Source: a virus (Duplodnaviria; Caudoviricetes). From it: 40,234 nt of DNA. A program made the translations under genes and the position numbers. Under the pieces are notes generated by a model that made no database searches, was not told the DNA's origin, and worked only from the letters and a program-made list of their open reading frames with translations. The stretch covers positions 1 to 40,234 of IMG/VR virus record IMGVR_UViG_3300032257_000040. One strand, 5' to 3'. Position 1 is the first letter of the stretch; each line of letters begins with the position of its first letter. Below are positions 28,237 through 39,834 of the stretch, in pieces.

Positions 28237-28470
28237 TACCAGATAAGTACCAGATTAAAACACTGTATAAAGACCCATTAGGGCTTATTAAGCCTGTATA
28301 GCTATAATTACCTATAAAAACCCTTAAAAATAAGGCGACCCGTACGGGACTCGAACCCGTACGGGTAATTTTTGGGGAAATCGCCGGAAAGCCTTATAGA
28401 TAAAGGGATTGCGGGTTTTTTCAGGGTTGATTATCAAGCGGGATAATGACACTCTACCAGATAAGTACCA
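28237..28470. mobile_element. attP: attP: tRNA (probably Glu) 3' fragment core with arm-type repeats
   Basis: Minus strand 28334-28360 reads ACGGGTTCGAGTCCCGTACGGGTCGCC (T-arm plus acceptor 3' strand). An 11-bp inverted repeat surrounds the 7-nt T-loop. TACCAGATAAGTACCA occurs at 28237-28252 and 28455-28470. Confidence 0.88.
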
Positions 28471-28513: not shown

Positions 28514-29647
28514 ATGAAACCAAAACTAAAAACGATCTGTATCGCGCTATCGCTTCTCTGTGGTGTCGCTCACTCTGCAACATATCCAGCCTGGGGTGCA
28601 GATTCCAATTATCTGGATAAGGTGAAAAGCTTCGACCGATCCGCGAAGAGGCTCGATCTTTCCAAGAGAATGGTTTCTCGGACTGCACAAGTCGGTGGTG
28701 TATTTGTCGGGGAAGTTGACAAGAAGGAATGGAGATTACTCACAAAGAAACTGGTGCGGATCAAATCTGCTCATCCAATGACGCCTATCGTGTTTGATGT
28801 TTCGGCAAAAAATAATCGAGATAAAAAAGTACTGAACTGGAAAAAATCATACATTCGAAGGAATCAAGATCGATTCGTTTACGCTGTAAATCCGAAATCC
28901 AGCCGAGCATTGAAAACGCAGTATTCCAAAATCGTTAAAGCCAACGGGCAAGACATCACTGTCTCCACTTTCAATTACCGAGCTGATCGACGGTTAGATT
29001 TGTATCACCCGAAAAAATTCAACGGGAAAACTTTCGTGTATTTCCATGCCGGGGGATGGTCGGGCGGATCTTTCAGGCAGTCGATTTTCAGGAACATCGT
29101 AGCGCACTTCGCTAGGAACGGGTACCAGTCCGTAATCGTAGAATACGCAGTCTCGAAAAGGCAGATCGACGCAACTCCTTTTGATTCTTTGGCCGATGCA
29201 AAAAGCGCGGTAAGGTGGGTAAAATCTAGACTCAATACGGACCGCTTGATTATTTGCGGATCATCGGCCGGGGGGCATCTCTCGCTTGCCATGCTTTACA
29301 GCAACCCAGAAAAATACAATCACCCGGAAGATGATTTATCGATTGATACGATTCCTGATGAAATCTGGGCGTACTTTCCTGTTCTGGATAACGGGCCGAA
29401 TGGGTACGGCTCTGATCGAGTCGGGGAAGAGTACCCTGATTTTTCGCCGCTCCACTGGTTGCGGGATTCAGGTGATCCCAGAATCACGAACGCAAGCACT
29501 CGGGTTATTCTCCATGCGTCTCCGAATGATGAAGTTGCGTCAATCCATCCAGTCAGGGAATTTAACGCAATCAACGGAAACTCTCGGCTTGTTGAGTATC
29601 CCGGAAGAACCCATCTTCAATGTCCTAGCCCTATCTTTTATCGGTGA
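28514..29647 (+). CDS. secreted alpha/beta-hydrolase (esterase, HSL/BD-FAE-like)
   Basis: Signal peptide; HAGGWSGGS oxyanion loop, GSSAGG nucleophile elbow, late D (NDEV) and H (GRTH). Confidence 0.88.
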   Translation: MKPKLKTICIALSLLCGVAHSATYPAWGADSNYLDKVKSFDRSAKRLDLSKRMVSRTAQVGGVFVGEVDKKEWRLLTKKLVRIKSAHPMTPIVFDVSAKNNRDKKVLNWKKSYIRRNQDRFVYAVNPKSSRALKTQYSKIVKANGQDITVSTFNYRADRRLDLYHPKKFNGKTFVYFHAGGWSGGSFRQSIFRNIVAHFARNGYQSVIVEYAVSKRQIDATPFDSLADAKSAVRWVKSRLNTDRLIICGSSAGGHLSLAMLYSNPEKYNHPEDDLSIDTIPDEIWAYFPVLDNGPNGYGSDRVGEEYPDFSPLHWLRDSGDPRITNASTRVILHASPNDEVASIHPVREFNAINGNSRLVEYPGRTHLQCPSPIFYR

Positions 29648-29721
29648 GATTCGCGCTGCAACTTTTCCCGTGATCCTGGAATTCATGCAAGATATTTAAA
29701 TCAAAACGCCAAAGCATAGCC

Positions 29722-29970
29722 ATGAGCGACGATAGGAAAAGAGAATATTCAAAATGCGGGTTTAAACTCGATGACTATGTAGCTCATTCGTCTGTTACTG
29801 AAAAAACCATTGGTGGAAGTGACGAGATCGTGGGGTTCACTCATGGAGGACACTTGATATTGCAGGGTTATGGTGACTCTACAATTAAAACCGTAATCCC
29901 TCAGTCGGTACGGAAGGTGGACTTCCCGCCAAAACCGCTACCGGAGATCAGATACGGAAAAACTTTCTAG
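29722..29970 (+). CDS. hypothetical protein (possible degenerate oldest cassette)
   Basis: 82 aa; stop abuts the first attC-like site. Confidence 0.65.
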   Translation: MSDDRKREYSKCGFKLDDYVAHSSVTEKTIGGSDEIVGFTHGGHLILQGYGDSTIKTVIPQSVRKVDFPPKPLPEIRYGKTF

Positions 29971-30086
29971 CACAACGCTTGAGTCCTGGTAGCGGGGCGG
30001 AAACAATTGATAATATGGAAAACGAACAAATTACGAACGACACGGAACACACAGTTGAACCGCTTACCAGCGACGACTTGGCAGGA
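29970..30086 (-). mobile_element. attC-like site 1 (outer GTT box damaged)
   Basis: GCACAAC-GCTTGA-GTCCTGGTAGCGG ... CCGC(T)TACCAG(C)GAC-GACTT-GGCAGG. Confidence 0.75.
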
Positions 30087-30089
30087 TGA
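30015..30089 (+). CDS. 24-aa leader peptide starting in attC1 loop
   Basis: MENEQITNDTEHTVEPLTSDDLAG; TGA overlaps ATG 30086. Confidence 0.5.
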   Translation: MENEQITNDTEHTVEPLTSDDLAG

Positions 30090-30415
30090 GCGATTCAATC
30101 GAATATTGTAAAGACTGCCCAGCCAATGTCGGATGTCACTTGGCTAGGAAATGCTTGGAGCTGGAAACTGAAGATGTCGCCCTTGATGTGCCGCGTCTTG
30201 TCCGGGAGGAGATAGCCAAGTTGCAAACGGGAACACTGGTAATCGTTGGTTGGCATGGATCGGAGAGGCACAAGCACGGATATACTGTCAGGAACGATTT
30301 GGGAGTGCAGGATCTGTATCATCGAGGTGATTGTGTGAGCGTGAAAAACCTATTGGATGGAACCCACGATGTATTTCTGGCTAACGACCAAGTTCTGACG
30401 CAGCCAAAACCTTGA
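30086..30415 (+). CDS. cassette gene, hypothetical
   Basis: 109 aa; reads into attC2 (LANDQVLTQPKP). Confidence 0.7.
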   Translation: MSDSIEYCKDCPANVGCHLARKCLELETEDVALDVPRLVREEIAKLQTGTLVIVGWHGSERHKHGYTVRNDLGVQDLYHRGDCVSVKNLLDGTHDVFLANDQVLTQPKP

Positions 30416-30506
30416 AACTTTATGAAAACTGAAACCGCCGAAATAGTAGAAGTGTCACCGGAGCCAATGGGCGTGGCGGCTGTCGCTCAGCAACGCCTTG
30501 TTCGTC
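30379..30506 (-). mobile_element. attC-like site 2
   Basis: GGCTAAC-GACCAA-GTTCTGA-CG-CAGCC ... GGCTG(T)CG(C)TCAG(C)AAC-GCCTT-GTTCGTC. Confidence 0.85.
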
Positions 30507-30760
30507 TTGGTGTTTGGCTGAGAAACCTCCGAGCATGGAAGACCGCACGGGCAAACCGTGACCTACAGCGAGCGATGCAGAAAGACCCCGACTTCGCGCA
30601 TGTGTGGCAATGCAATATCGCCATGCCAATCCTCGACGGAGCGAATGGGAAACTGACACCCGAAGAGGCGAACGAGATCGCAGACCGACTCATGGCGCAC
30701 CTCTTCAATGTGAAGACGAACGATAGAGGACAGGCACGGAGCGAAGCGGAGTTGTCCTGA
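30422..30760 (+). CDS. cassette gene, conserved phage protein (AMQKDPDFA..WQCNIAM motif)
   Basis: 112 aa; ATG inside the attC2 loop, stop inside attC3. Confidence 0.8.
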   Translation: MKTETAEIVEVSPEPMGVAAVAQQRLVRLGVWLRNLRAWKTARANRDLQRAMQKDPDFAHVWQCNIAMPILDGANGKLTPEEANEIADRLMAHLFNVKTNDRGQARSEAELS

Positions 30761-30775
30761 TCCGTCTTGTTATCC
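30715..30775 (-). mobile_element. attC-like site 3 (short, 61 bp)
   Basis: GACGAAC-GATAGA-GGACAGG-CA-C ..GCGAAGC.. G(T)TG(T)CCTG(A)TCC-GTCTT-GTTATCC. Confidence 0.85.
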
Positions 30776-30786
30776 AATTTGAATTT

Positions 30787-30963
30787 ATGAAAAAGAAGAC
30801 CAGACAAATTATTCACCACCTCATTTATTGGTATCTAAGAAAGTCCGGTGGGGCATTTCACACGAAACCGTATGGACCTAAAGGAAGGTATATCGTCTTG
30901 ATGAATGAGGATCAATATAGTCGATTCGAGGCGACCAGAACTCGACCAAGCATTTTAGGATAA
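30787..30963 (+). CDS. cassette gene, 58-aa basic hypothetical protein
   Basis: MKKKTRQIIHHLIYWYLRKSGGAFH...; fills the cassette; TAA is part of the GGATAAC box; below the ORF-track length cutoff. Confidence 0.75.
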   Translation: MKKKTRQIIHHLIYWYLRKSGGAFHTKPYGPKGRYIVLMNEDQYSRFEATRTRPSILG

Positions 30964-31030
30964 CGAAAAAAGTGATGACAGATAAAATGACCAGCGGGAA
31001 TGAATCTTGCTCATCCACGACTTGTTCTGC
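30958..31030 (-). mobile_element. attC-like site 4
   Basis: GGATAAC-GAAAAAA-GTGATGA-CA-GA ... TC(T)TG(C)TCAT(C)CAC-GACTT-GTTCTGC. Confidence 0.82.
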
Positions 31031-31232
31031 TTGGGAGATGCAGGAACCGGGATGGTGGACCCTCGATAAAGTTGGGGGAGTTGTAAAGGAACACAATAAT
31101 CGGTGGGGGGCATATCGTTGGAACAAGGACCAAGAAAGCCCAGTTCGGAATTTCCCAACACTGTCCAAAGCAAAAGAATTTTTAGAGCAGAACGCCAAAG
31201 GTGACTCAGGAGCACCGAACGAAAAGATATGA
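30972..31232 (+). CDS. cassette gene, Trp-rich hypothetical protein
   Basis: 86 aa; start within attC4, stop within attC5 loop overlapping the next ATG. Confidence 0.72.
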   Translation: MMTDKMTSGNESCSSTTCSAWEMQEPGWWTLDKVGGVVKEHNNRWGAYRWNKDQESPVRNFPTLSKAKEFLEQNAKGDSGAPNEKI

Positions 31233-31285
31233 ATACAGAAAAAAACTCTCCAGAGGTGGTCCTTGAGTCCACCGTCTTGTTATGC
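31187..31285 (-). mobile_element. attC-like site 5
   Basis: GCAGAAC-GCCAAA-GGTGACT-CA-GGA-G-CACC ... GGTG-G-TCC(T)TG-AGTC(C)ACC-GTCTT-GTTATGC. Confidence 0.88.
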
Positions 31286-31507
31286 GAATGCGAAGGACCG
31301 GGGCATATCTGCAAGCATTGCGACGACCGTCTGGAGAAATCCGGTTATTACGAGGATATAAAGGCCGAGGATGAAGAGAGATTATCAACGCGCCTACAAG
31401 AATTGGCATGGACGGATGGTCCATTAACCAATGATCAAAAAATTGAACTGATTGAGATTCGATCACTGTTAGAAGATATACATCATCCAGAATTATCTAA
31501 AGCATAA
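31229..31507 (+). CDS. cassette gene, small Cys-containing (CEC..CKHC) protein
   Basis: 92 aa; ATG in attC5 loop; TAA within the GCATAAC box. Confidence 0.75.
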   Translation: MNTEKNSPEVVLESTVLLCECEGPGHICKHCDDRLEKSGYYEDIKAEDEERLSTRLQELAWTDGPLTNDQKIELIEIRSLLEDIHHPELSKA

Positions 31508-31620
31508 CGACAATAGCACAGGCAGGACGGGCGAAACGATATGAAGCAGGAAAACCAATCAGATAGGATACAGTCGGAAACTCAAGAGGGTACGTCCTTG
31601 CCTGCTGCGTCTTGTTATGT
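31502..31620 (-). mobile_element. attC-like site 6
   Basis: GCATAAC-GACAATA-GCACAGG-CA-GGACG ... CGTCC(T)TG-CCTG(C)TGC-GTCTT-GTTATGT. Confidence 0.88.
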
Positions 31621-31627
31621 CTTATGA
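31541..31627 (+). CDS. 28-aa leader peptide starting in attC6 loop, coupled to MTase
   Basis: MKQENQSDRIQSETQEGTSLPAASCYVL; TGA 31625-31627 overlaps ATG 31624. Confidence 0.5.
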   Translation: MKQENQSDRIQSETQEGTSLPAASCYVL

Positions 31628-32385
31628 GGTATTCGGGCGGCAAAGCAAGGCAAGCGTCAAGCATTGCCAAGATTCTGAATGGATACTCCAAAAAGAATCA
31701 ACCCTACCTTGAACCGTTCTGCGGAATGTTCTCGGTTGGGTCTCTTGTCGCAAATCAAGTTAGGCATGGATCGGACATTGATTCGGATGTGGTCGCACTG
31801 TTGGAGGAAGTGAGAGACGGTTGGGAACCACCTGACGAGGTAACGGAAAATGACTACAATATGTGGAAAGATGATCCATCGCTGATAGAACCACGAATGA
31901 GGGCATTTGTAGGATTCGGGTGCTCCTTTGGGGGGAATAAGTGGGGTAAATATGCGAAAGATAACGCAGGAGACAGGAATTATGCTCTGAATGCGAAGAG
32001 ATCGTTGATTAAGCATTCCAAAAACCTAAAAGGAGCATCGTTTCGCGTATGCTCGTATGACGACTGGAATCCGTCTGGAATGTTGATCTACTGTGATCCG
32101 CCATACACAAACACAACTTCTGATTCGGTCCCCGGATTGTATCACTTCAACCCATTCGACTTTTGGGATTTGTGCCGCTACTGGGCAAAATCAAATATCG
32201 TTTTTGCATCGGAACGAATGTTCCCGACTCAGCACACTGAAATTGTTTCGGAGTGGGACAGACAGAAGGCGAGTAGCGAATCAAAAAAAGGAATGCTGGA
32301 AAGACTCGTCAGAGTTCATCCACGAAAAATAACCAGAAAACCATCTCAGATCGAAGTTGAACAACTTCTTTTATTCGAGACATAA
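31624..32385 (+). CDS. DNA adenine methyltransferase (Dam/D12 class), carried as a cassette
   Basis: MRYSGGK, YLEPFCG (SAM binding), IYCDPPY (catalytic); TAA within the ACATAAC box. Confidence 0.9.
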   Translation: MRYSGGKARQASSIAKILNGYSKKNQPYLEPFCGMFSVGSLVANQVRHGSDIDSDVVALLEEVRDGWEPPDEVTENDYNMWKDDPSLIEPRMRAFVGFGCSFGGNKWGKYAKDNAGDRNYALNAKRSLIKHSKNLKGASFRVCSYDDWNPSGMLIYCDPPYTNTTSDSVPGLYHFNPFDFWDLCRYWAKSNIVFASERMFPTQHTEIVSEWDRQKASSESKKGMLERLVRVHPRKITRKPSQIEVEQLLLFET

Positions 32386-32491
32386 CAGTGTTAATATGTC
32401 AGACGAATCCGCATAACTCATTGATGCGCAACTGGCAATATTTTCCATAACAAAAGTGATACTGTCAGACGGTTTGAAAAAACCACATAAC
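32380..32491 (-). mobile_element. attI-like terminal site of the cassette array
   Basis: ACATAAC box with no hairpin partner; imperfect direct repeat CATAACAGTGTTAATATGTCAGACG (32381) / CATAACAAAAGTGATACTGTCAGACG (32446); CATAAC also at 32412 and 32486. Confidence 0.6.
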
Positions 32492-32501
32492 GCTTTATAT
32501 T
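32474..32501 (+). promoter_or_regulatory. candidate sigma70 promoter for integrase
   Basis: TTGAAA-16 nt-TATATT, 5 nt before ATG 32507 (leaderless). Confidence 0.4.
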
Positions 32502-32506
32502 CAAGA

Positions 32507-33664
32507 ATGAAACAGGGTATAGGCTCGCGGAAGAAAACAAGCGTTACGGTAGCAAAGTGGAAGCACCCGACGTTTAAATATCGCGTTTCGTGGATTCAGG
32601 GGGGGAATGCGCGCGATAAAGGATTTCACAGGAAAAAAGACGCGGAAGCCTGGGCGGAAGAAAAAGAGGCTGAATTACTCGCTTTTGGTCCGTTATCTGA
32701 TTTAACGCATGATGAGCGCTCTACAGTGATCGACACCCGAGCGGATCTTTCACGGGCAGATATGACGCTTAGAAACGCGGTCAATATTGCGCTGGATCGT
32801 CACGCGAAAGAATCGGTTTCAGACGTGCCTGTTTCTGACTTGATCCAGATCGTTCTCAGGGATCGCGAAAAGGCCGGGAGATCGGAACGGTACTTGCAGG
32901 ATATTCAATCGAGATCAAAACCGTTTGAATCTGCTTTCGGTTCGCGGCTGGTTTCCTCCATCGAGCGATCCGAGATTGAAACCTGGCTCGACTCGCTCGG
33001 AGTCGCACCCAGAACCAGAAACAATTATCTCAATACTGTTCGATTGCTTTTCAATGACGCGGTTTCCCGGAAACTCTGCGATGAAAACCCGGCAACAGAA
33101 ATTACGGAATCGAAAATCATTCAGAAAGAGGCAGGGATTTTTACACCGGAGCAAATGACGGAATTTATCAAAGTTGTGGATTCGTCCCTACTTCCTGCTG
33201 TTCTTCTGTCTGGATTCGCTGGAATCAGGCGCGAGGAAGTTTCAAAGCTACGATGGAATGCCGTAAACATGGCACAGAAAACAATCTACATTTCCGCCGA
33301 AATCGCCAAACTTGGAAAGATCCGGTATGTTCCCATTGAAGACAATCTTTTAGAGTGGCTGACGCCCTACGCTGATCTTACCGGCCCGATTTGGCCTCCA
33401 GACGGAGACGGCAAGCTGTCACGGGCTAGGGCGGCTTTGAAGAAGAAAGGACACGACACCCCAGAGAATGCCTTGAGGCACTCATACGGCTCGTATCACC
33501 TCGCAGAATGGAACGACATAAACCAGACTGCACAAAATATGGGGAACTCTCCTAAGATGATTCTGGAAAGCTATCGAAAAGCCGTACCGAAATCCGTGGC
33601 AAGTGCTTACTGGTCGATTTCACCAGATCCGGGGAACGTTGTAAGATTCGAGAAAGTGTCCTAA
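32507..33664 (+). CDS. int: tyrosine integrase with N-terminal arm-binding domain
   Basis: GIRREE (R), AKLGK (K), NALRHSY, MGNS, ESY; N-terminal KYRVSW...F..KKDAEAW. ORF track starts at GTG 32456; ATG 32507 is more likely. Confidence 0.93.
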   Translation: MKQGIGSRKKTSVTVAKWKHPTFKYRVSWIQGGNARDKGFHRKKDAEAWAEEKEAELLAFGPLSDLTHDERSTVIDTRADLSRADMTLRNAVNIALDRHAKESVSDVPVSDLIQIVLRDREKAGRSERYLQDIQSRSKPFESAFGSRLVSSIERSEIETWLDSLGVAPRTRNNYLNTVRLLFNDAVSRKLCDENPATEITESKIIQKEAGIFTPEQMTEFIKVVDSSLLPAVLLSGFAGIRREEVSKLRWNAVNMAQKTIYISAEIAKLGKIRYVPIEDNLLEWLTPYADLTGPIWPPDGDGKLSRARAALKKKGHDTPENALRHSYGSYHLAEWNDINQTAQNMGNSPKMILESYRKAVPKSVASAYWSISPDPGNVVRFEKVS

Positions 33665-33691
33665 CACTGCCGACCGACAGCGCGAACTGAT

Positions 33692-33841
33692 TCAATGCGG
33701 TTCTTGCGGTTCTTCCGGTTCTTCCGGTTCTATAAGGCAAAGAATCGCATCTAGTAAAGATTCAATCTCGGGGTGGTCCTTCGCGGCCTGATCTATTTCG
33801 GCTGGAAGGTTTCGCGTTTCGGGAGGGTCAAGCGATTCCAT
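33692..33841 (-). CDS. 49-aa ORF coupled to repressor, resembling its C-terminal helices
   Basis: MESLDPPETRNLPAEIDQAAKDHPEIESLLDAILCLIEPEEPEEPQEPH; the 9-bp tandem repeat at 33697-33731 encodes the EPE tail. Confidence 0.5.
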   Translation of the reverse strand: MESLDPPETRNLPAEIDQAAKDHPEIESLLDAILCLIEPEEPEEPQEPH

Positions 33842-34259
33842 CTAAATAGTCCATCACGGATTCAGCGACTCGTAAAGGATCTTTTTCGATTTCACAGATT
33901 TTTATTATCTGTTCGCCTATTTGTTCCAATTCTGAGCTAATATACTTCCTAGATTCCGTTAGGGCTACAATCTCCCTGAACACCGAATCCAATCCGGGAT
34001 TACTATCCAGGGCAGAAGCAACGCGCAAGGCAAGCGGGGATAAATTCTCTTCAAGGTAGATCACCGGAGTTAATTCGATGTCCAAAAAATCCTCGATCTT
34101 TTTCACCGTTTCGTCGGGCAATTGCTTTACCTGACCGGAAAAAAGTTTCGTCATCCAAGGTTTTGATTTCCCTATCGCTCGTGACATCGAGGCGCGGGTT
34201 TCCCCTTTTAGCGTCAATGCTTTAGCGATTGATTCCAAGAGCGGTTCGGTAACGTCCAT
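33828..34259 (-). CDS. phage repressor (XRE-type HTH)
   Basis: RASMSRAIGKSKPWMTKLFSGQVKQL HTH; only major minus-strand gene, divergent from the early operon. Confidence 0.85.
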   Translation of the reverse strand: MDVTEPLLESIAKALTLKGETRASMSRAIGKSKPWMTKLFSGQVKQLPDETVKKIEDFLDIELTPVIYLEENLSPLALRVASALDSNPGLDSVFREIVALTESRKYISSELEQIGEQIIKICEIEKDPLRVAESVMDYLDGIA

Positions 34260-34393
34260 TTATAGAACCGTTATGGAAAATGAAGAAAATACAAATAAAT
34301 TATTTGCACTATTTGTTTTTATGGTTTCTATTACGTAAATACCAGTAACCGAAACGGTTACTTTTTTATTTAAACCTGAATAATACTAACTAT
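34260..34393. promoter_or_regulatory. divergent lysis/lysogeny control region
   Basis: AT-rich intergenic; perfect palindrome AGTAACCG-AAA-CGGTTACT at 34344-34362 followed by T-run (operator or attenuator). Confidence 0.65.
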
Positions 34394-34612
34394 ATGAAAA
34401 CTATTAAAAATCAAAGTAAAAAAACAAACCGGGAGACAACCTGTATTCAAATCGATTCGGTGACTCACTCGCGAATGAAGAAACTTAAAGAAGAAACTGG
34501 AGTCCCGATGGGCCAATTGGTTTCTTCCTTTCTCGAATATGGAGCCGGGAAAGTCGAAAGCGGAGAATTGAAAATCAAGCGGTCTGCAATCGCTCTAACT
34601 GACGCGGCTTAA
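34394..34612 (+). CDS. ribbon-helix-helix regulator in Cro position
   Basis: TTCIQIDSVTHSRMKKLKEETGVPMGQLVSSFLE. Confidence 0.75.
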   Translation: MKTIKNQSKKTNRETTCIQIDSVTHSRMKKLKEETGVPMGQLVSSFLEYGAGKVESGELKIKRSAIALTDAA

Positions 34613-34664
34613 TGCGAACGCTCTTCTTTGTTCTCATCCTTTTAATTCTCACCCTACTAACTAA

Positions 34665-34883
34665 ATGAACGGAATTCTACTATACGACCGGGAAGCACTG
34701 GCGAAAGCAATTCACGTATCCCTGTCCATGATCGACAATCTGGTAAAAGCCGAAAAGATCCCCGTGATCAAATGCGGGAAACGAAATCTTTTTAACGGTC
34801 TTCGCGTAGTCGAGGCGCTTGAATCTGGTGTTGCTGATCCTAAGAACGGCGGCGCAACGAAGGGAATGAAATATGCAGCGTAA
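34665..34883 (+). CDS. excisionase-like HTH_17 protein
   Basis: YDREALAKAIHVSLSMIDNLVKAEKIPVIKCGKRNLF. Confidence 0.8.
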   Translation: MNGILLYDREALAKAIHVSLSMIDNLVKAEKIPVIKCGKRNLFNGLRVVEALESGVADPKNGGATKGMKYAA

Positions 34884-35112
34884 ACCGATGACGCTCAATC
34901 GTCTCTCGTGGGAGCGGCAAGCACACAAGGACCGAATCAAAATCATTCTGGCTAATCAGACTCCGCAACTTCTCGGAGAGCTAAAGGCGCGAATGGATCG
35001 GGTAAAGAATCTTTCTGAGGTTATTTCAATGCGGTTGGAATCAAAGCGGAAGTATCGCGGCTCACTCATTGGCGTTAATCACAGTCTGGAGGCGACTCTT
35101 CTAACTTGGTAA
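34873..35112 (+). CDS. hypothetical protein
   Basis: 79 aa, packed in the early operon. Confidence 0.6.
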   Translation: MQRKPMTLNRLSWERQAHKDRIKIILANQTPQLLGELKARMDRVKNLSEVISMRLESKRKYRGSLIGVNHSLEATLLTW

Positions 35113-35113
35113 C

Positions 35114-35356
35114 ATGAGCGCTATACCTTTCTTAGATCGCCAAAACAGAGCGCGTAAAATCATCAAGAATCCGCAACGGTATTGCGTCTGTAATGATTGC
35201 GGCTCGATCATCAGTAAATCTAAAATCTCGCAGATCTGCCCTATCTGCAGTTCTTACAATCCAATCCGCGACGAAGAGACGGTAATTAAAACCGCTCAGA
35301 AACTCGCACAACGACAACGGCGTTTGGACTTCGATTGGCTCGAAGATCTCGCTTAA
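35114..35356 (+). CDS. zinc-ribbon protein
   Basis: CNDC...CPIC. Confidence 0.75.
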   Translation: MSAIPFLDRQNRARKIIKNPQRYCVCNDCGSIISKSKISQICPICSSYNPIRDEETVIKTAQKLAQRQRRLDFDWLEDLA

Positions 35357-35391
35357 AAATCTCTCTCAACTAACAAAACAACAAAACCATT

Positions 35392-36156
35392 ATGTCTACT
35401 ACTAAAGCAAATACAGAAATCGTCGAAACTAAATCGACACCAAAACCGAAGGACTTAAAAAGCCTTATCAATAGCGGCGCAGTCAAAAACCAAATCGCTC
35501 GCGCTCTACCTAAACACATGACGCCAGATCGTTTTCTGCGTGTCGTCACAACTACCTTGCTACGCACCCCGAAACTCGCGGACTGTTCGCAAGAATCAGT
35601 TATTAAAGCAATGCTTGATTGTTCCTCGCTCGGGTTGGAACCGGACGGGCGACGATGCCACCTAATCCCCTACGGGAAAGAATGCCAACTCATCGTTGAC
35701 TACAAAGGATTGATCGAGCTGGCGAAGCGATCCGGGGAAGTCTCCACGTGGAAAGCCGAGACGGTCAAAACTAACGATCTGTTCGCATGGCGCAACGGTG
35801 AGATTGATCACGAGATCGATTTTCGCACTGATCGCGGAGATTTGGAATGTGTTTATTCAGTGGTTAAAACTAAAGACGGCGAACTCGATTACGAGATCAT
35901 GACGCTTTCCGAAGTCGAATCGATCCGATCAAGAAGCAAAGCAGGGAAAGCCGGGCCTTGGGTGACTGACTTCGAAGAGATGGCAAAGAAAACCGTGATT
36001 CGTCGCCATAGTAAGCGCCTCACTCTTTCGCCTGAATTCCATAACGCAACCGAGATTGACGCTGATCAATTGGAGATTCGCGACGTAACACCCAAAGCAA
36101 CGCGGAAGGAAATCGCTCCCACCGAAAACCCTTTTGAGTTGGAGGGTGCAGAATGA
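35392..36156 (+). CDS. recT: RecT single-strand annealing protein
   Basis: ALPKHMTPDRFLR, LGLEPD, YKGLIELAKRSG, GPWVTDFEEMAKKTVIRR. Confidence 0.96.
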   Translation: MSTTKANTEIVETKSTPKPKDLKSLINSGAVKNQIARALPKHMTPDRFLRVVTTTLLRTPKLADCSQESVIKAMLDCSSLGLEPDGRRCHLIPYGKECQLIVDYKGLIELAKRSGEVSTWKAETVKTNDLFAWRNGEIDHEIDFRTDRGDLECVYSVVKTKDGELDYEIMTLSEVESIRSRSKAGKAGPWVTDFEEMAKKTVIRRHSKRLTLSPEFHNATEIDADQLEIRDVTPKATRKEIAPTENPFELEGAE

Positions 36157-36794
36157 GTTTTACAGACTGCGAAATCATCGATTGCGAACAGCGCTCCCCG
36201 GAATGGTTCGAGGCTCGAAAAGGAATTCTGACAGCTTCGGAATTCGGCCCATGGCTTTTGAAGAGTGACAAGACAAGCGGCAAGGCTCGCGAGACTGCGA
36301 TTTGTAAACTCGTGGCTCGAACTGCTGACGCCTGGGAACCTTCATTTTTCGAAAACGAAGCAATGAAGCGCGGGACCGAGTTGGAACCGGAGGCATTGAA
36401 GGCATTTCAGGAAGGAACCGGGAAGAAAGTCAAGGAGGTAGGTTTTTGCAGATCTGTTTACGGGCTTTTCGGATGCTCCCCGGACGGTCTTCTAATTCGG
36501 TCCAATACAGGCTACGAAAACAAAGCGCCGATTCCCTCGACACATATCAAATATCGTCGGGCCGGAACTCTGCCCGATGAATACAAATGGCAGGTTCTCG
36601 GCTCGATGGCAGTCACCGGGGCGAAGGCGTGGTGGTTTCAATCCTACAATCCCGGCCTGGCACCTTTGCGAATCCTGATCGAGCGCAACGATGAAGTGGA
36701 AGCACTGAAAGCTGCTCTAATCGAATTTTCCAGCCAACTAAAGGAAGCCTTGAGAGAGGAAGCCGAAGCGTGGCGGAAAGAATACCAGAAATAA
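36153..36794 (+). CDS. YqaJ/lambda-type exonuclease
   Basis: QRSPEWFEARKGILTAS, GCSPDGL, ENKAP, YKWQV. Confidence 0.94.
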   Translation: MSFTDCEIIDCEQRSPEWFEARKGILTASEFGPWLLKSDKTSGKARETAICKLVARTADAWEPSFFENEAMKRGTELEPEALKAFQEGTGKKVKEVGFCRSVYGLFGCSPDGLLIRSNTGYENKAPIPSTHIKYRRAGTLPDEYKWQVLGSMAVTGAKAWWFQSYNPGLAPLRILIERNDEVEALKAALIEFSSQLKEALREEAEAWRKEYQK

Positions 36795-36828
36795 GAAACA
36801 GAAACACAAACAGCAACACAACAACCAA

Positions 36829-37215
36829 ATGAAAAAAATAACCATATCACTATTAGCGCTCGCATGTTGCCTCGCAGCTTGCGAAGGACAGGAGGCAACC
36901 CACAGGCCGGAATTCAACGGCGATTATCTAACCTATGTATTCCGGGACGGTGAGACGTTTATCGGGGTCGTAGCGTCTCTCTATCGCCTCTCTCCAGAAG
37001 TAGCCAAAGAACAGGCGGAATACATCTGGGAGCGATGCCGGGCAGAAACACATAATTCAACGCTTATGGAAACCCGGCCTTGGCAGGTGATCGACTTCGC
37101 TCGACCACCATACGCGGAAAAAGGAAAAGTGATCGCTTTCCCGGCAAAAATTAACCTGTTCCAAAAACGCAACTATCAGCCTAAACCCGGAATCACTCCC
37201 GGAATGATGGCGTAA
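36829..37215 (+). CDS. putative lipoprotein
   Basis: MKK + hydrophobic core + LAAC lipobox. Confidence 0.7.
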   Translation: MKKITISLLALACCLAACEGQEATHRPEFNGDYLTYVFRDGETFIGVVASLYRLSPEVAKEQAEYIWERCRAETHNSTLMETRPWQVIDFARPPYAEKGKVIAFPAKINLFQKRNYQPKPGITPGMMA

Positions 37216-37218
37216 CAA

Positions 37219-37521
37219 ATGAGGCAATCACCACACCGAAAAAAGTTTCTTGATGTCATGTCTGACGGGCAACGGCGCAAGTCGGCTGACATCAAGAAGC
37301 TGATCGGAATGAAAGAAAAATCAAGCGTCACGATGTTTATCAATAACCTGGCAAGCCGACTACTGACAGACGGCGCAGATATCAAAATAAAATCAGCCTG
37401 GGTGAAAAGCAAACACGGGGCGCGCGGCGGGAAGGAATGGTGGATCGAAAAAAGGCCACAAAAGAGATACTTCGGACCCGTAACGATTCACGACATTTTC
37501 GATGACCAATACCAATTCTAA
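37219..37521 (+). CDS. hypothetical winged-helix-like protein
   Basis: 100 aa basic; MSDGQRRKSADIKKLIG. Confidence 0.65.
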   Translation: MRQSPHRKKFLDVMSDGQRRKSADIKKLIGMKEKSSVTMFINNLASRLLTDGADIKIKSAWVKSKHGARGGKEWWIEKRPQKRYFGPVTIHDIFDDQYQF

Positions 37522-37532
37522 AAAACAACAAT

Positions 37533-38000
37533 ATGACAACATTCAAGCAACCAATAGTAAGGCGCACTAACCAGCGCGAAACCAAAGTATTCACATCGGC
37601 AGAACTCCGCGAGGCGTCAATGACCCCTCGAGAGCAGGACTACCAGCGGGAACTCATATCAGCCGGGGAGCGGCACATTGCAAAATGGAGCGTGAAGGGT
37701 TTGGCGGAAACCGTCGAGCGAACAAGGGCGAACGTAGAAGAGCGCGAAAGGCGTTTGGATCTGGCGGAACAGATCGACGCATATCAAGCCATTGAATCCC
37801 TTAGAGATGAGATAGACGGGCTTGACGATGCTCTGCTACATCTTCATCAAGCGGAATGGTATCGAGGGCAATCCGATGACATCTACCAAAACGAATCCCG
37901 AAGCGAGGAACTAGCCGAAGACCTCGACACCCTGCAAGGACATTACGAAAGTTTTTACGCTTTCGATATCGTGGTCATCAATCCGAAAGGGGCGCGATAA
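37533..38000 (+). CDS. hypothetical coiled-coil protein
   Basis: 155 aa ORF with A/C-rich leader. Confidence 0.7.
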   Translation: MTTFKQPIVRRTNQRETKVFTSAELREASMTPREQDYQRELISAGERHIAKWSVKGLAETVERTRANVEERERRLDLAEQIDAYQAIESLRDEIDGLDDALLHLHQAEWYRGQSDDIYQNESRSEELAEDLDTLQGHYESFYAFDIVVINPKGAR

Positions 38001-38272
38001 TGACAGGCACCATCTCAGTACGCTCTCATCTACACAGAGACGAGCGAGTACAGGTTTTACTGATCCTGACTCAATTGGAGCAATTTACCGTCCTAGGAAC
38101 TCTCCTTTCACTCTGGAGTCACGGCGATTTTAACAGCCGGGAAGCTATCGACGTTTACGCGGGTTTCTCTGGGTTCGCTGATTCGATGGAACAGGCCGGG
38201 CTACTCGTCGAGAACTCTCACGGGTTGGCTTTTGTTTCAGGTAATCTCTATACATTTGGAGGGGCGGAATAA
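38000..38272 (+). CDS. protein resembling N-terminal domain of phage replication proteins
   Basis: VLGTLLSLWS..D...IDVYAGFSGFADSMEQAGLL pattern. Confidence 0.6.
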   Translation: MTGTISVRSHLHRDERVQVLLILTQLEQFTVLGTLLSLWSHGDFNSREAIDVYAGFSGFADSMEQAGLLVENSHGLAFVSGNLYTFGGAE

Positions 38273-39126
38273 TGAGCGAATCAAAACCAACTCAAACTAA
38301 AACTCTTTCAATCGTGAAATGGAAAGAGATTTTCGAAAGAGCAGAATCAAGGAAGTTGCAACGGTTGACATATTATTGCCCTCCGTCTGGTTGCGATTCG
38401 TCGGGCTACCTGGAACTGATGGTAGGGCACGAGGAAGACGGTGTAACAGCATTTGGCGTCTTCTGCGCGCTATGTCAATTCACCGCGACACTACCAGCGG
38501 ATCGCCGGGGGATGCTCGTAAAGACCAATGGAAAGCCTTATACAATCCGCTTTATTTCGTCACTCATCCGAATACCGGAGGAAATCGTAGATAAATCGAT
38601 AGCCATCCTAACAGAACCACAAATCAGTTGGTTGGAGTGGGTCGACAGCCCTGATGTAAAGGGAGGTACAGAAGAATCTCCCGGCGATCTCCCGGAAGAA
38701 TCCCAACAATCTCCCGCCGATCTCCCGCTGACAACCGGAAATCCCCCGGACAGAGGAGAGGAGATAAGAGGAGAGGAGAATAGAGGAGAGGGTACAACGG
38801 ATAATTTTGGTGTTTCCGGGGATGATTTGAAAAAGTCGAAAGAACTCGAAGCGATAATTTCCGGAATTCGATCACTCCAAAAAAATTGGAATAATCATTT
38901 TTCAGAGCCGGAGATGCGAGCGCTTGCAGACACTCACGAAAGTTTTCGCGGTTACGATTTTTCCCTAGTTCGCGATTGGTTCGAAAAATCACCGGACAAG
39001 CGGAAGCCAAAAAACCGCCTGAACTTCATTCAAAACGGCGTGTCCCACTCCAGCCTCACACGGGCCGAAGATTGGAAAAAAGAAATCAAGAAAAACAAAT
39101 CCCTGAAAACCGGGGATCAATTCTAA
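38272..39126 (+). CDS. replication initiator (lambda O-like organisation)
   Basis: N-terminal helical domain, repetitive linker with iterons and RGEEIRGEENRGE, followed by a DnaC-like gene. Confidence 0.8.
   Translation: MSESKPTQTKTLSIVKWKEIFERAESRKLQRLTYYCPPSGCDSSGYLELMVGHEEDGVTAFGVFCALCQFTATLPADRRGMLVKTNGKPYTIRFISSLIRIPEEIVDKSIAILTEPQISWLEWVDSPDVKGGTEESPGDLPEESQQSPADLPLTTGNPPDRGEEIRGEENRGEGTTDNFGVSGDDLKKSKELEAIISGIRSLQKNWNNHFSEPEMRALADTHESFRGYDFSLVRDWFEKSPDKRKPKNRLNFIQNGVSHSSLTRAEDWKKEIKKNKSLKTGDQF
38675..38791. repeat. candidate replication origin iterons
   Basis: ATCTCCCG x4 (two AATCTCCCGSCGATCTCCCG units at 38675 and 38708) plus ATCCCCCG, then AGAGGAG purine repeats. Confidence 0.65.
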
Positions 39127-39138
39127 CAAAACAATAAA

Positions 39139-39834
39139 ATGATAGCTGAAAATTCAATGACCAAAATTTGCACTTGCGGGAAACCGTTCGCGGCTGAACT
39201 CGCTCGGAGTCTCACGGGGAATTTAATTCCGACGCAAACACATTGCGACGATTGCTTGGCAGATCGTGACGGCGCAATCGAAAGATTTTCAAAACGGAAA
39301 ATCGAATCGAAAGTTTCCGCGCTCAAATCTTACGATGGGTTTCAGCTTTCAAAGCTTCCCGTGTCGAGTCAAGCGATAGCGGCGAAAGTTTTGAGTTGGG
39401 AACCGGGCGGGAAAGGAATCGTGATGGTTGGAAAATCTGGCACCGGGAAAACTTTCACGACCTACGCTCTTGCGAGACGGTTGGAATCCCAGGGCAACAC
39501 AATCGCATTGATCGAGGATCACAAAATCAACGCACTGGTCCGAACCAATGACGCCAAGCGCGAATCGATGCTTTCGAAAATTGATCAATCTCAAATCATC
39601 GTCTGGGATGACTTCGGATCGGCAAAGATGACCGACGCAACCGAATCCTTTTATTTCGATCTGCTCGAACGAATCAACAAGGCCGGGAAACCCGTAATCG
39701 GAAGCGCGAATTTTTCCGGGGAACAAATCAAAACGAGATGGGCCGAAACGAGCGGCGAAAACACTTTCCTGGAGGTTCGCGGCGAGCGGATAATTCGACG
39801 TTTCCGGGAATCCTGTTCTGTCGTCGCGGTCTGA
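39139..39834 (+). CDS. DnaC/IstB-like AAA+ helicase loader
   Basis: CTC..CDDC zinc site, GKSGTGKT Walker A, VWDDFG Walker B, RIIRRF. Confidence 0.9.
   Translation: MIAENSMTKICTCGKPFAAELARSLTGNLIPTQTHCDDCLADRDGAIERFSKRKIESKVSALKSYDGFQLSKLPVSSQAIAAKVLSWEPGGKGIVMVGKSGTGKTFTTYALARRLESQGNTIALIEDHKINALVRTNDAKRESMLSKIDQSQIIVWDDFGSAKMTDATESFYFDLLERINKAGKPVIGSANFSGEQIKTRWAETSGENTFLEVRGERIIRRFRESCSVVAV

Follow-up and report, generated by a model that had tools for sequence, protein, structure and literature searches.

A reversed array of six attC-type gene cassettes in a tailed phage, probably loaded in trans by a host integron integrase

Arrays of attC sites in phage genomes have already been published. 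Among 10,705 phage genomes, Qi et al. 2023 (PMC9892861) reported 17 CALINs, and IntI1 recombined five of six phage attC sites, so the earlier note on the DNA studied here, which took such an array not to be a standard phage feature, put the matter too strongly. Those CALINs and the present array have in common the one-gene cassettes, the lack of intI and an orphan DNA methyltransferase among the cargo, and the present array likewise consists of clustered attC sites with no neighbouring intI, which is the definition of a CALIN. The action of IntI in trans was proposed by Qi et al. and shown for other phage sites. In the accessible text of that paper, however, the cassettes have the typical layout, and no systematic inversion, loop-encoded starts or Verrucomicrobia are described, whereas in our array all genes are inverted and one end is attI-like. 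We found no published description of the inverted layout; the literature searched for inverted phage cassettes covered subscription papers and bioRxiv supplements thinly, which leaves their absence unproven.

Compared with sedentary chromosomal integrons, as presented in the accessible parts of PMC2727003 and PMC4889954, the phage array has neither intI nor a demonstrated Pc. Moreover, its genes lie on the bottom strand, and the hairpin precedes the gene and often holds the start codon. The 'inverted integron-integrase' integrons (PMC4889954, accessible text) resemble the phage array in their unusual orientation, but there intI is flipped and the gene-attC relation is normal, whereas in the phage it is the genes whose orientation to attC is reversed. 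Finally, IntI also inserts cassettes at attG sites outside complete integrons (Loot et al. 2024, as cited in PMC12614218 and PMC11389934); unlike such insertions, the phage has six cassettes stacked at an attI-like end.

The window, i.e. the whole stretch of 40,234 nucleotides analysed, contains six hairpins of 61-128 nt within 1.7 kb (Table 1). As described in the earlier note, each of the five intact sites consists of N4AAC, a spacer of 6-7 nt, a 7-nt box, the loop and a bulged T, followed by a right arm with an 8-nt box carrying one extra base, G(A/C/T)CTT and GTTN4. The damage noted in site 1 was also borne out, the right box being GGCAGGA and not GTT, with arms and spacer intact. An attC site is defined by terminal AAC and GTT boxes, L boxes forming inverted repeats, an unpaired spacer and a length of 57-142 nt; in its R''-L'' arm two or three bases, as a rule a G and a T, are extrahelical. 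The box features were intact in five of the six hairpins, and the extrahelical positions and the T are as in attC, with C (4/5) or A (1/5) as the first extrahelical base. This base is described as G, and the effect of G>C was mild in one assay (PMC2727003, accessible part). Most host-group sites share the C or A at this position. The + strand of the array reads R'-L'-L''-R'', which is the attC bottom strand; the assignment to the attC type made in the earlier note held, but the order R''-L''-L'-R' given there did not.

Table 1. Positions of the array features and the right-hand flank in the window.
Feature	Position	Strand	Remarks
attC-type hairpin 1	29970..30082	+	model 30.4 bits, E 2.5e-6
Cassette 1 (damaged)	29976..30384	+	hairpin 1 and 109-aa ORF 30086-30415
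attC-type hairpin 2	30379..30506	+	model E 8.7e-7; gene ATG 30422 within loop
Cassette 2	30385..30720	+	112-aa ORF 30422-30760
attC-type hairpin 3 (61 nt)	30715..30775	+	model E 1.4e-10
Cassette 3	30721..30963	+	58-aa ORF 30787-30963; phrog_25292, unknown function
attC-type hairpin 4	30958..31030	+	model E 9e-6; in-frame starts 30972-30987 within
Cassette 4	30964..31192	+	ORF of at most 86 aa (30972-31232)
attC-type hairpin 5	31187..31285	+	model E 4.5e-11
Cassette 5	31193..31507	+	92-aa ORF 31229-31507, start in hairpin loop
attC-type hairpin 6	31502..31620	+	model E 4.6e-10
Cassette 6	31508..32385	+	D12-class (Dam-like) adenine DNA methyltransferase, 31624-32385, 253 aa
attI-like end	32380..32405	+	last AAC box, no hairpin behind, then AGTGTTAATATGTCAGACG
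Sequence in region of attI-like end	32380-32500		AGTGTTAAT
Direct repeats	32397..32491	+	TGTCAGACG twice, three more CATAAC
Phage tyrosine integrase, 385 aa	32507..33664	+	PF00589; adjoins array

The array of attC-type sites is real. Of 38 chromosomal attC sites of Verrucomicrobiales genomes, 33 were used to train a covariance model, three with ATG in the loop and two near-duplicates being left out. This model recovered all six hairpins, at the starts previously given for them, with E-values from 5e-11 to 9e-6; no other match had an E-value under 0.3. The training sites were chosen with a strict scanner and first reached via hairpin 3, but the model is still more independent than the scanner. 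The latter, tuned after the sites were known, gave five matches in the window, all within the array and none on the minus strand, and two matches in 12 shuffled strands; a looser first scan gave 7 plus-strand and 8 minus-strand matches. The chromosomal attC sites covary, with 90.7% of cells paired vs 66.5% after shuffling and two-sided changes at 10 of 12 stem pairs. In addition, all five GTTN4/N4AAC pairs bounding the phage cassettes are exact reverse complements in the right order, as claimed before; the chance of this is about 4e-7 if box frequencies are taken from 38 sites of the family and 9e-13 if they are uniform. The array had no match in Rfam or among 50,697 GenBank phages. Folding as ssDNA, a check proposed in the earlier note, did not make the sites clearly stabler than shuffles (z -2.1 to +0.5 on the + strand, -1.6 to +1.0 on the - strand), and the predicted probability of the recombinogenic fold was 0.002-0.71, sites 2 and 4 being low (0.002 and 0.009) and the chromosomal median being 0.22. 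Free folding energies near those of shuffled sequences would suit chance inverted repeats or terminators. Nevertheless, that explanation has a practically negligible probability: it is contradicted by the model E-values, the shared cassette ends and the exact box footprints, and no terminator-like sites were found in the array. A possible seventh relic hairpin, seen by eye near 29700-29800, received no score from the model and was dropped.

Since the + strand corresponds to the attC bottom strand, the cassette genes are inverted. A canonical cassette is a promoterless top-strand gene followed by its attC; all five phage genes considered depart from this, lying on the bottom strand and starting within the hairpin in front of them or shortly behind it. 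By contrast, 28 of 32 chromosomal cassettes were canonical, none was inverted and four were unclear, four further sites without an exact footprint having been dropped from this count. One apparently inverted cassette with a loop start was found at an attI beside a true intI on a small contig (G323), but its direction is ambiguous by ORF length (108 vs 91 aa). The earlier interpretation as one-gene cassettes with attC sites and no IntI stands, and what it missed are the reversed polarity and the attI-like end.

Start codons or coupled leaders sit in the hairpin loops. The loop of hairpin 1 carries a 24-codon leader ORF (30015-30089), the stop of which shares bases with the gene ATG at 30086, and hairpin 6 has a 28-codon leader ORF (31541-31627) overlapping, by its stop, the methyltransferase ATG. 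The ORF of cassette 4 runs into hairpin 5, where its stop overlaps the ATG at 31229, and the stop codon of cassette 3 is the TAA inside GGATAAC. A relative of the cassette 5 protein, 84% identical, differs in the loop-encoded N-terminus but ends at the same residue. On one contig of run X3, a near copy of hairpin 5 has a different sequence joined after GTTA. The orphan methyltransferase scored above the PF02086 cut-off and matched phrog_56, and its relatives share the MRY/MQY start. The ORF of cassette 1 had no match in Pfam, PHROG or NCBIfam, and a single-protein scan of viral contigs revealed no relative of cassette 4 or of the methyltransferase.

Judged solely from the integrase and the sites, the host likely belongs to the Verrucomicrobiales. 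Of 401 genomes of this order, 168 have an IntI scoring above the cut-off. Two genomes, G105 (of the inverted-integrase kind) and G226, each carry a complete integron on the chromosome, in which a true intI adjoins the same sites and footprint as in the phage; another (G002) has attI-like motifs beside two intI genes, and for four of the first five genomes the scanner gave no array at intI. The integrons of G105, G226 and G128 share with the phage array the attC family, i.e. spacers, L boxes and extrahelical C and T, as well as the footprint and the type of attI core. Short attC sites of Verrucomicrobiales genomes showed 79-89% similarity to hairpin 3. The locus L274 (in G404) has two weak sites.

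By position and sequence likeness, the right end of the array resembles an attI at the proximal end of an integron. Among the 150 matches listed for the end motif AACAGTRTTAWT, ten lie within ~0.7 kb of one of the 150 intI genes listed, and all ten, paired by eye from the listings, point towards intI (0.016 expected). The motif was derived from the window and G105, appears to be no commoner genome-wide than its reversed control, and was present at two of eight array ends walked beside intI. The end-site alignment is circular for the 12-base motif, most rows having been selected by it. The attI of G226 also shares GTCAGAC beyond the motif and is the sole match of a longer end pattern in the 401 genomes, the pattern having been written from that match. 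The single viral match of an 18-base end-site pattern, inside a gene, was judged to be chance. The repeats between array and integrase may belong to attI as accessory repeats or serve as arm sites of the integrase, and repeats are common upstream of related integrases; the phage attP might also lie there (32386-32490), although a stretch at 28237-28470 is the better candidate. A Pc scan, itself near chance (11 vs 6.4 +/- 2.8), gave one 9/12 consensus match on the minus strand (32468-32440), which would be antisense to the cassette genes. It is conceivable that host IntI drives the array with the end being an incidental secondary site of the attG type or an integrase arm, and with growth at attC sites. 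This would agree with the unlike sequences at which other phage copies terminate, with IntI insertion at attG sites (as cited in PMC12614218) and with the repeats often found upstream of related integrases; we consider it quite improbable in view of the 12-base match to sites beside intI, in at most ten places, and the longer match to the G226 attI.

As the earlier note had stated, the phage, whose genome is rated 100% complete, contains no intI. By its sequence, the integrase next to the array is an ordinary prophage enzyme of the tRNA type and not an IntI: it scored 39 bits against TIGR02249 (cut-off 265), and the spacing from VP[LI] to LRHS is 48 residues compared with 101 in the IntI of G105, the IntI-specific segment being absent. 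A tRNA or tmRNA lay just upstream of 30 of 41 relatives, the check covering 41 of 80 relative loci. No array was found upstream of relatives at 80 viral and 80 genomic loci, these relatives being only 21-45% identical and having less than 1 kb upstream in 25 of the 80 viral loci. The one array in their neighbourhood (L238) has the canonical layout and comes after a truncated ORF resembling, by eye, the start of an IntI. A single-protein scan of viral contigs gave no relative of the phage integrase. The layout would invite the explanation that this enzyme recombines the cassettes itself, being placed like intI in a canonical integron, with the end site followed ~120 bp on by an integrase transcribed away from the array and with repeats in between. 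Such a role is very improbable given the missing IntI segment, the score far below the cut-off, the mostly tRNA- or tmRNA-linked relatives without upstream arrays, and the presence of cassette 2 in other places without a visible integrase of this kind.

Cassette 2 was found in four other contexts (L399, L001/L400, L401 and L002/L402) with unrelated flanks, e.g. near a terminase gene, and in all five contexts, including the phage, both of its ends lie at AAC, implying that the unit has moved and bearing out the cassette coordinates and AA|C cuts of the earlier note. Since the other copies end at unlike sequences, attI is not required; attG insertion may explain these lone copies. Of the 119 loci matched by a 16-base arm pattern, almost all were chance matches, and one had a hairpin by the scanner, which missed the known L002 copy. 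No close relatives of the phage were found, and contigs of runs X1-X3 (X1 perhaps being the source), which drop rare forms, contained no circles, skipped cassettes or joints at AAC. Genuine cassettes could also have been assembled elsewhere and imported as a whole block, for example by the RecE/RecT-like pair encoded in the phage, and now be frozen, the end site being a passenger. The damaged site 1, the lack of joints in contigs and the location in the cargo zone between the attP-like site and the integrase would fit such a history. We nevertheless find it unlikely, as all five footprints have stayed exact and the DNA identity of cassette 2 to its measured copies from other contexts is 89% (L001) and 83% (L002), which points to recent movement of single cassettes. 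Moreover, all genes are inverted, unlike in chromosomal arrays, so that the block does not represent a piece of a host integron.

Host IntI acting in trans is the likeliest driver of the array on sequence grounds, and we hold it probable that the array comprises six one-gene cassettes with host-type attC sites, an attI-like end and reversed genes, loaded by that enzyme. With a reversed array and no integron enzyme of its own, the phage would likely borrow the host enzyme to trade genes. Folding and cutting of the attC bottom strand are established (PMC2727003, accessible part); here IntI would fold the + (coding) strand and cut at AA|C in the left box, and excision would yield a circle whose two boxes pair. 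We propose that circles are inserted chiefly at the attI-like end, which would make the methyltransferase cassette the most recent arrival and the damaged cassette 1 the oldest. The inverted genes would be read by the phage's own rightward transcription without Pc, and the loop start codons and stop-start overlaps would make a cassette translatable wherever it is inserted. The methyltransferase would likely shield phage DNA against host restriction.

The case can be tested directly: matching intI, attI and attC of the host group have been identified, and there is a standard assay for attC x attI recombination. Homologous or illegitimate recombination is the usual explanation for phage mosaicism; in the present case, individual small genes pass from one phage-like genome to another, with breakpoints set precisely by an enzyme. 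We give somewhat better than even chances to a wider picture, in which Verrucomicrobia phages would have their own pool of backwards, self-translating cassettes and bare attI docks, with host IntI as a swap service shared by unrelated phages, i.e. a phage-adapted, parasitic branch of the integron with cassettes derived from phage genes. Because the hairpin supplies the gene start, the array bears on the open question of cassette origin. The integron system is best known for spreading resistance genes, and if IntI drives the array, integrons would serve a second set of users, whose cassettes are built the other way round.

All six attC-type hairpins described in the earlier note were recovered in place, the five intact ones by a strict scanner and the full set by a covariance model, and site 1 was the only damaged one, as had been stated. 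The strict scanner, which was tuned on the window sites themselves, matched the five intact sites alone, as against 2 matches in 12 shuffled strands. The covariance model was trained on 33 of the 38 chromosomal sites and is only partly independent, because these training sites were chosen with the same scanner; it recovered 6/6 window sites with E values of 4.5e-11 to 9e-6, the next-best match having an E value of 0.3. Moreover, the claimed pairing of the boxes that bound the genes (GTTN4 and N4AAC) proved exact in 5/5 cases, the chance of which is about 4e-7 from the family box frequencies. When the sites were folded as single-stranded DNA, a check that the note had proposed, the stability of the free DNA was no better than that of shuffles. 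The predicted probability of the recombinogenic fold was 0.002-0.71, within the span of the chromosomal sites (0.0001-0.88). Weighing the fold stability on one side and the matches and box pairs on the other, we consider a chance origin of the hairpins practically negligible.

Coordinates of the array and of other features observed in the window and in searched genomes and contigs
Feature	Location	Observation
Podovirus-type virion genes	window 6310-26725	head-tail adaptor, tail proteins, internal virion protein, 2417-aa protein without family
attP-like site	window 28237-28470	about 4 kb from the integrase
Core of attP-like site	window ~28325-28366, minus strand	doubles as a perfect 11-bp hairpin; presumably resembles a tRNA 3' end
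Direct repeats	window 28237 and 28455	exact, 16 bases, flanking the core
Alpha/beta hydrolase (BD-FAE, esterase-like)	window 28514-29647	apparent signal peptide; no bounding hairpins
Site 1	window 29970-30082	GTT lost
Sites 2-6 (starts)	window 30379, 30715, 30958, 31187, 31502	intact
Cassette 2	window 30385-30720	
Temperate module	window 32507-39834	integrase, RecE/RecT, DnaC-like loader; joined to virion genes
Chromosomal array	L238 6822-11633	seven sites, canonical; two cassettes duplicated
Verrucomicrobiales integrons	G105:C1 3331811-3333211; G226:C1 3255688-3256605; also G172, G126	intI divergent from cassettes or in line with them
Phage contig	L317 2977-3584	two sites of the array's attC family; gene co-directional with neighbours
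Lone inverted cassette in another phage	L320 3061-3594, minus strand	DNA methyltransferase (phrog_111) begins in hairpin loop
tRNA-like gene cluster	L399 ~2000-2700	after array (by eye); such clusters are a trait of large phages

Since the extra bases lie on the right arm of the hairpins, the + strand is the attC bottom strand (after Bouvier et al.), and the intact window cassettes are all inverted (5/5), with their genes on the strand opposite to that used in chromosomal arrays. The array was matched in 17 of the 401 Verrucomicrobiales genomes, mostly through hairpin 3, and the hairpin-3-like sites formed arrays with the same footprint, adjoining a true intI in genomes G105 and G226. Among the 32 chromosomal cassettes counted, which omit four sites without an exact footprint, 28 were canonical (gene on the attC top strand), none inverted and four ambiguous. 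One apparently inverted, loop-start cassette was located at attI, adjoining intI, in genome G323. Phages contain cassettes of both directions, that in L317 being canonical.

From the predicted start codons and leaders we infer that the hairpins supply the translation starts of the cassette genes. Genes 2, 4 and 5 have in-frame starts within the hairpin ahead of each, hairpins 1 and 6 hold leader ORFs of 24 and 28 codons, respectively, whose stop overlaps the next ATG, and the gene 4 stop sits on the gene 5 ATG. The loop start of gene 2 was in frame in every copy found, and a relative of gene 5 had the same end and a different loop-encoded N-terminus.

Copies of cassette 2 were detected at two viral and four metagenome loci, the latter in a search of 17 of 64 parts, and represented four distinct contexts. 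In each context the likeness ran from the left AAC to the right AAC, and the sequences on either side were unrelated. One copy had a terminase gene nearby (L001), and another belonged to a further array of inverted, loop-start cassettes (L399). In addition, hairpin 5 was joined to different sequence in one contig from sequencing run X3. No circles or cassette deletions were seen in the contigs searched from runs X1-X3, as would be expected of a frozen block of genuine cassettes in an array no longer active; set beside the four contexts of cassette 2, such a block appears rather unlikely.

The window is a complete virus record (40,234 bases, completeness rating 100%), and, in line with the earlier description of a phage without IntI, none was found in it. 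The phage integrase scored 39 bits against the IntI cut-off of 265, its IntI-specific region was about 50 residues short, and a tRNA or tmRNA stood ahead of the integrase gene in 30 of the 41 relatives checked. We found no array upstream of the integrase gene in 160 relatives, which comprised 80 of the 204 viral and 80 of the 82 genomic ones; these are distant, and 25 of the viral loci are cut close to the gene. Isolated single sites did occur near integrase relatives (L010/L011, L034 and L057), and the canonical array near another (L238) seems, by eye, to belong to a truncated IntI, whose gene looks to have been cut short by insertion of an element that encodes a relative of the phage's own integrase. 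Given the integrase's score, its short region and the lack of arrays upstream of these relatives, we regard recombination of the cassettes by the phage integrase itself as highly improbable. An IntI above the cut-off was present in 168/401 Verrucomicrobiales genomes; many IntI frames of this order carry a long N-terminal extension and measure 430-530 aa. Because the nearest relatives of the phage integrase (44-45%) lie in Verrucomicrobiales genomes, this is the likely host group.

The last array gene is followed by an AAC box with no hairpin behind it, and the next sequence is AGTGTTAATATGTCAGACG. The array of the G105 integron ends with AGTATTATT, and the motif common to both ends is AACAGTRTTAWT. 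In the 401 genomes, at least ten matches to AACAGTRTTAWT (including G105, which is not independent, and two from one genome) lay within about 0.7 kb of a listed intI, all directed towards it, with 0.016 expected when 150 of 296 matches were compared with 150 of 246 intI. A script found a hairpin and footprint upstream of 4/10, and the G226 site shares the continuation GTCAGACG with the phage. The motif occurred at only two of the eight array ends walked beside intI, and no genome-wide excess over the control was visible in the 401 genomes. Copies of cassette 2 elsewhere end at sequences unlike this type of end, which counts against an attI reading. Given the proximity and direction of the matches on the other side, an incidental end site seems quite improbable.

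Nearly all window genes are carried by the + strand, in the order terminase, head, tail, endolysin, array, integrase, repressor-like gene, RecT, RecE and replication genes. The esterase gene, likely a moron, lies just 5' of the array, and both are situated between the attP-like site and the integrase.

Qi et al. 2023 (PMC9892861) describe 17 CALINs among 10,705 phages, methyltransferase cargo in phage CALINs and IntI1 activity on 5/6 phage attC sites, and a second paper (PMC11389934) describes mobilisation of CALINs in trans. In the literature searched we found no paper on phage cassettes that are inverted, loop-start and accompanied by a bare attI. The phage array is a CALIN with attC-type sites, whereas its cassettes differ from canonical ones and the array is not a complete integron. 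We propose that a host IntI probably acts on the folded coding strand to excise and insert cassettes, and that the phage's candidate attI-like end would receive those it carries. The inversion would align the cassette genes with phage transcription, and the array, judged from its sequence, may work like an integron without an enzyme of its own.
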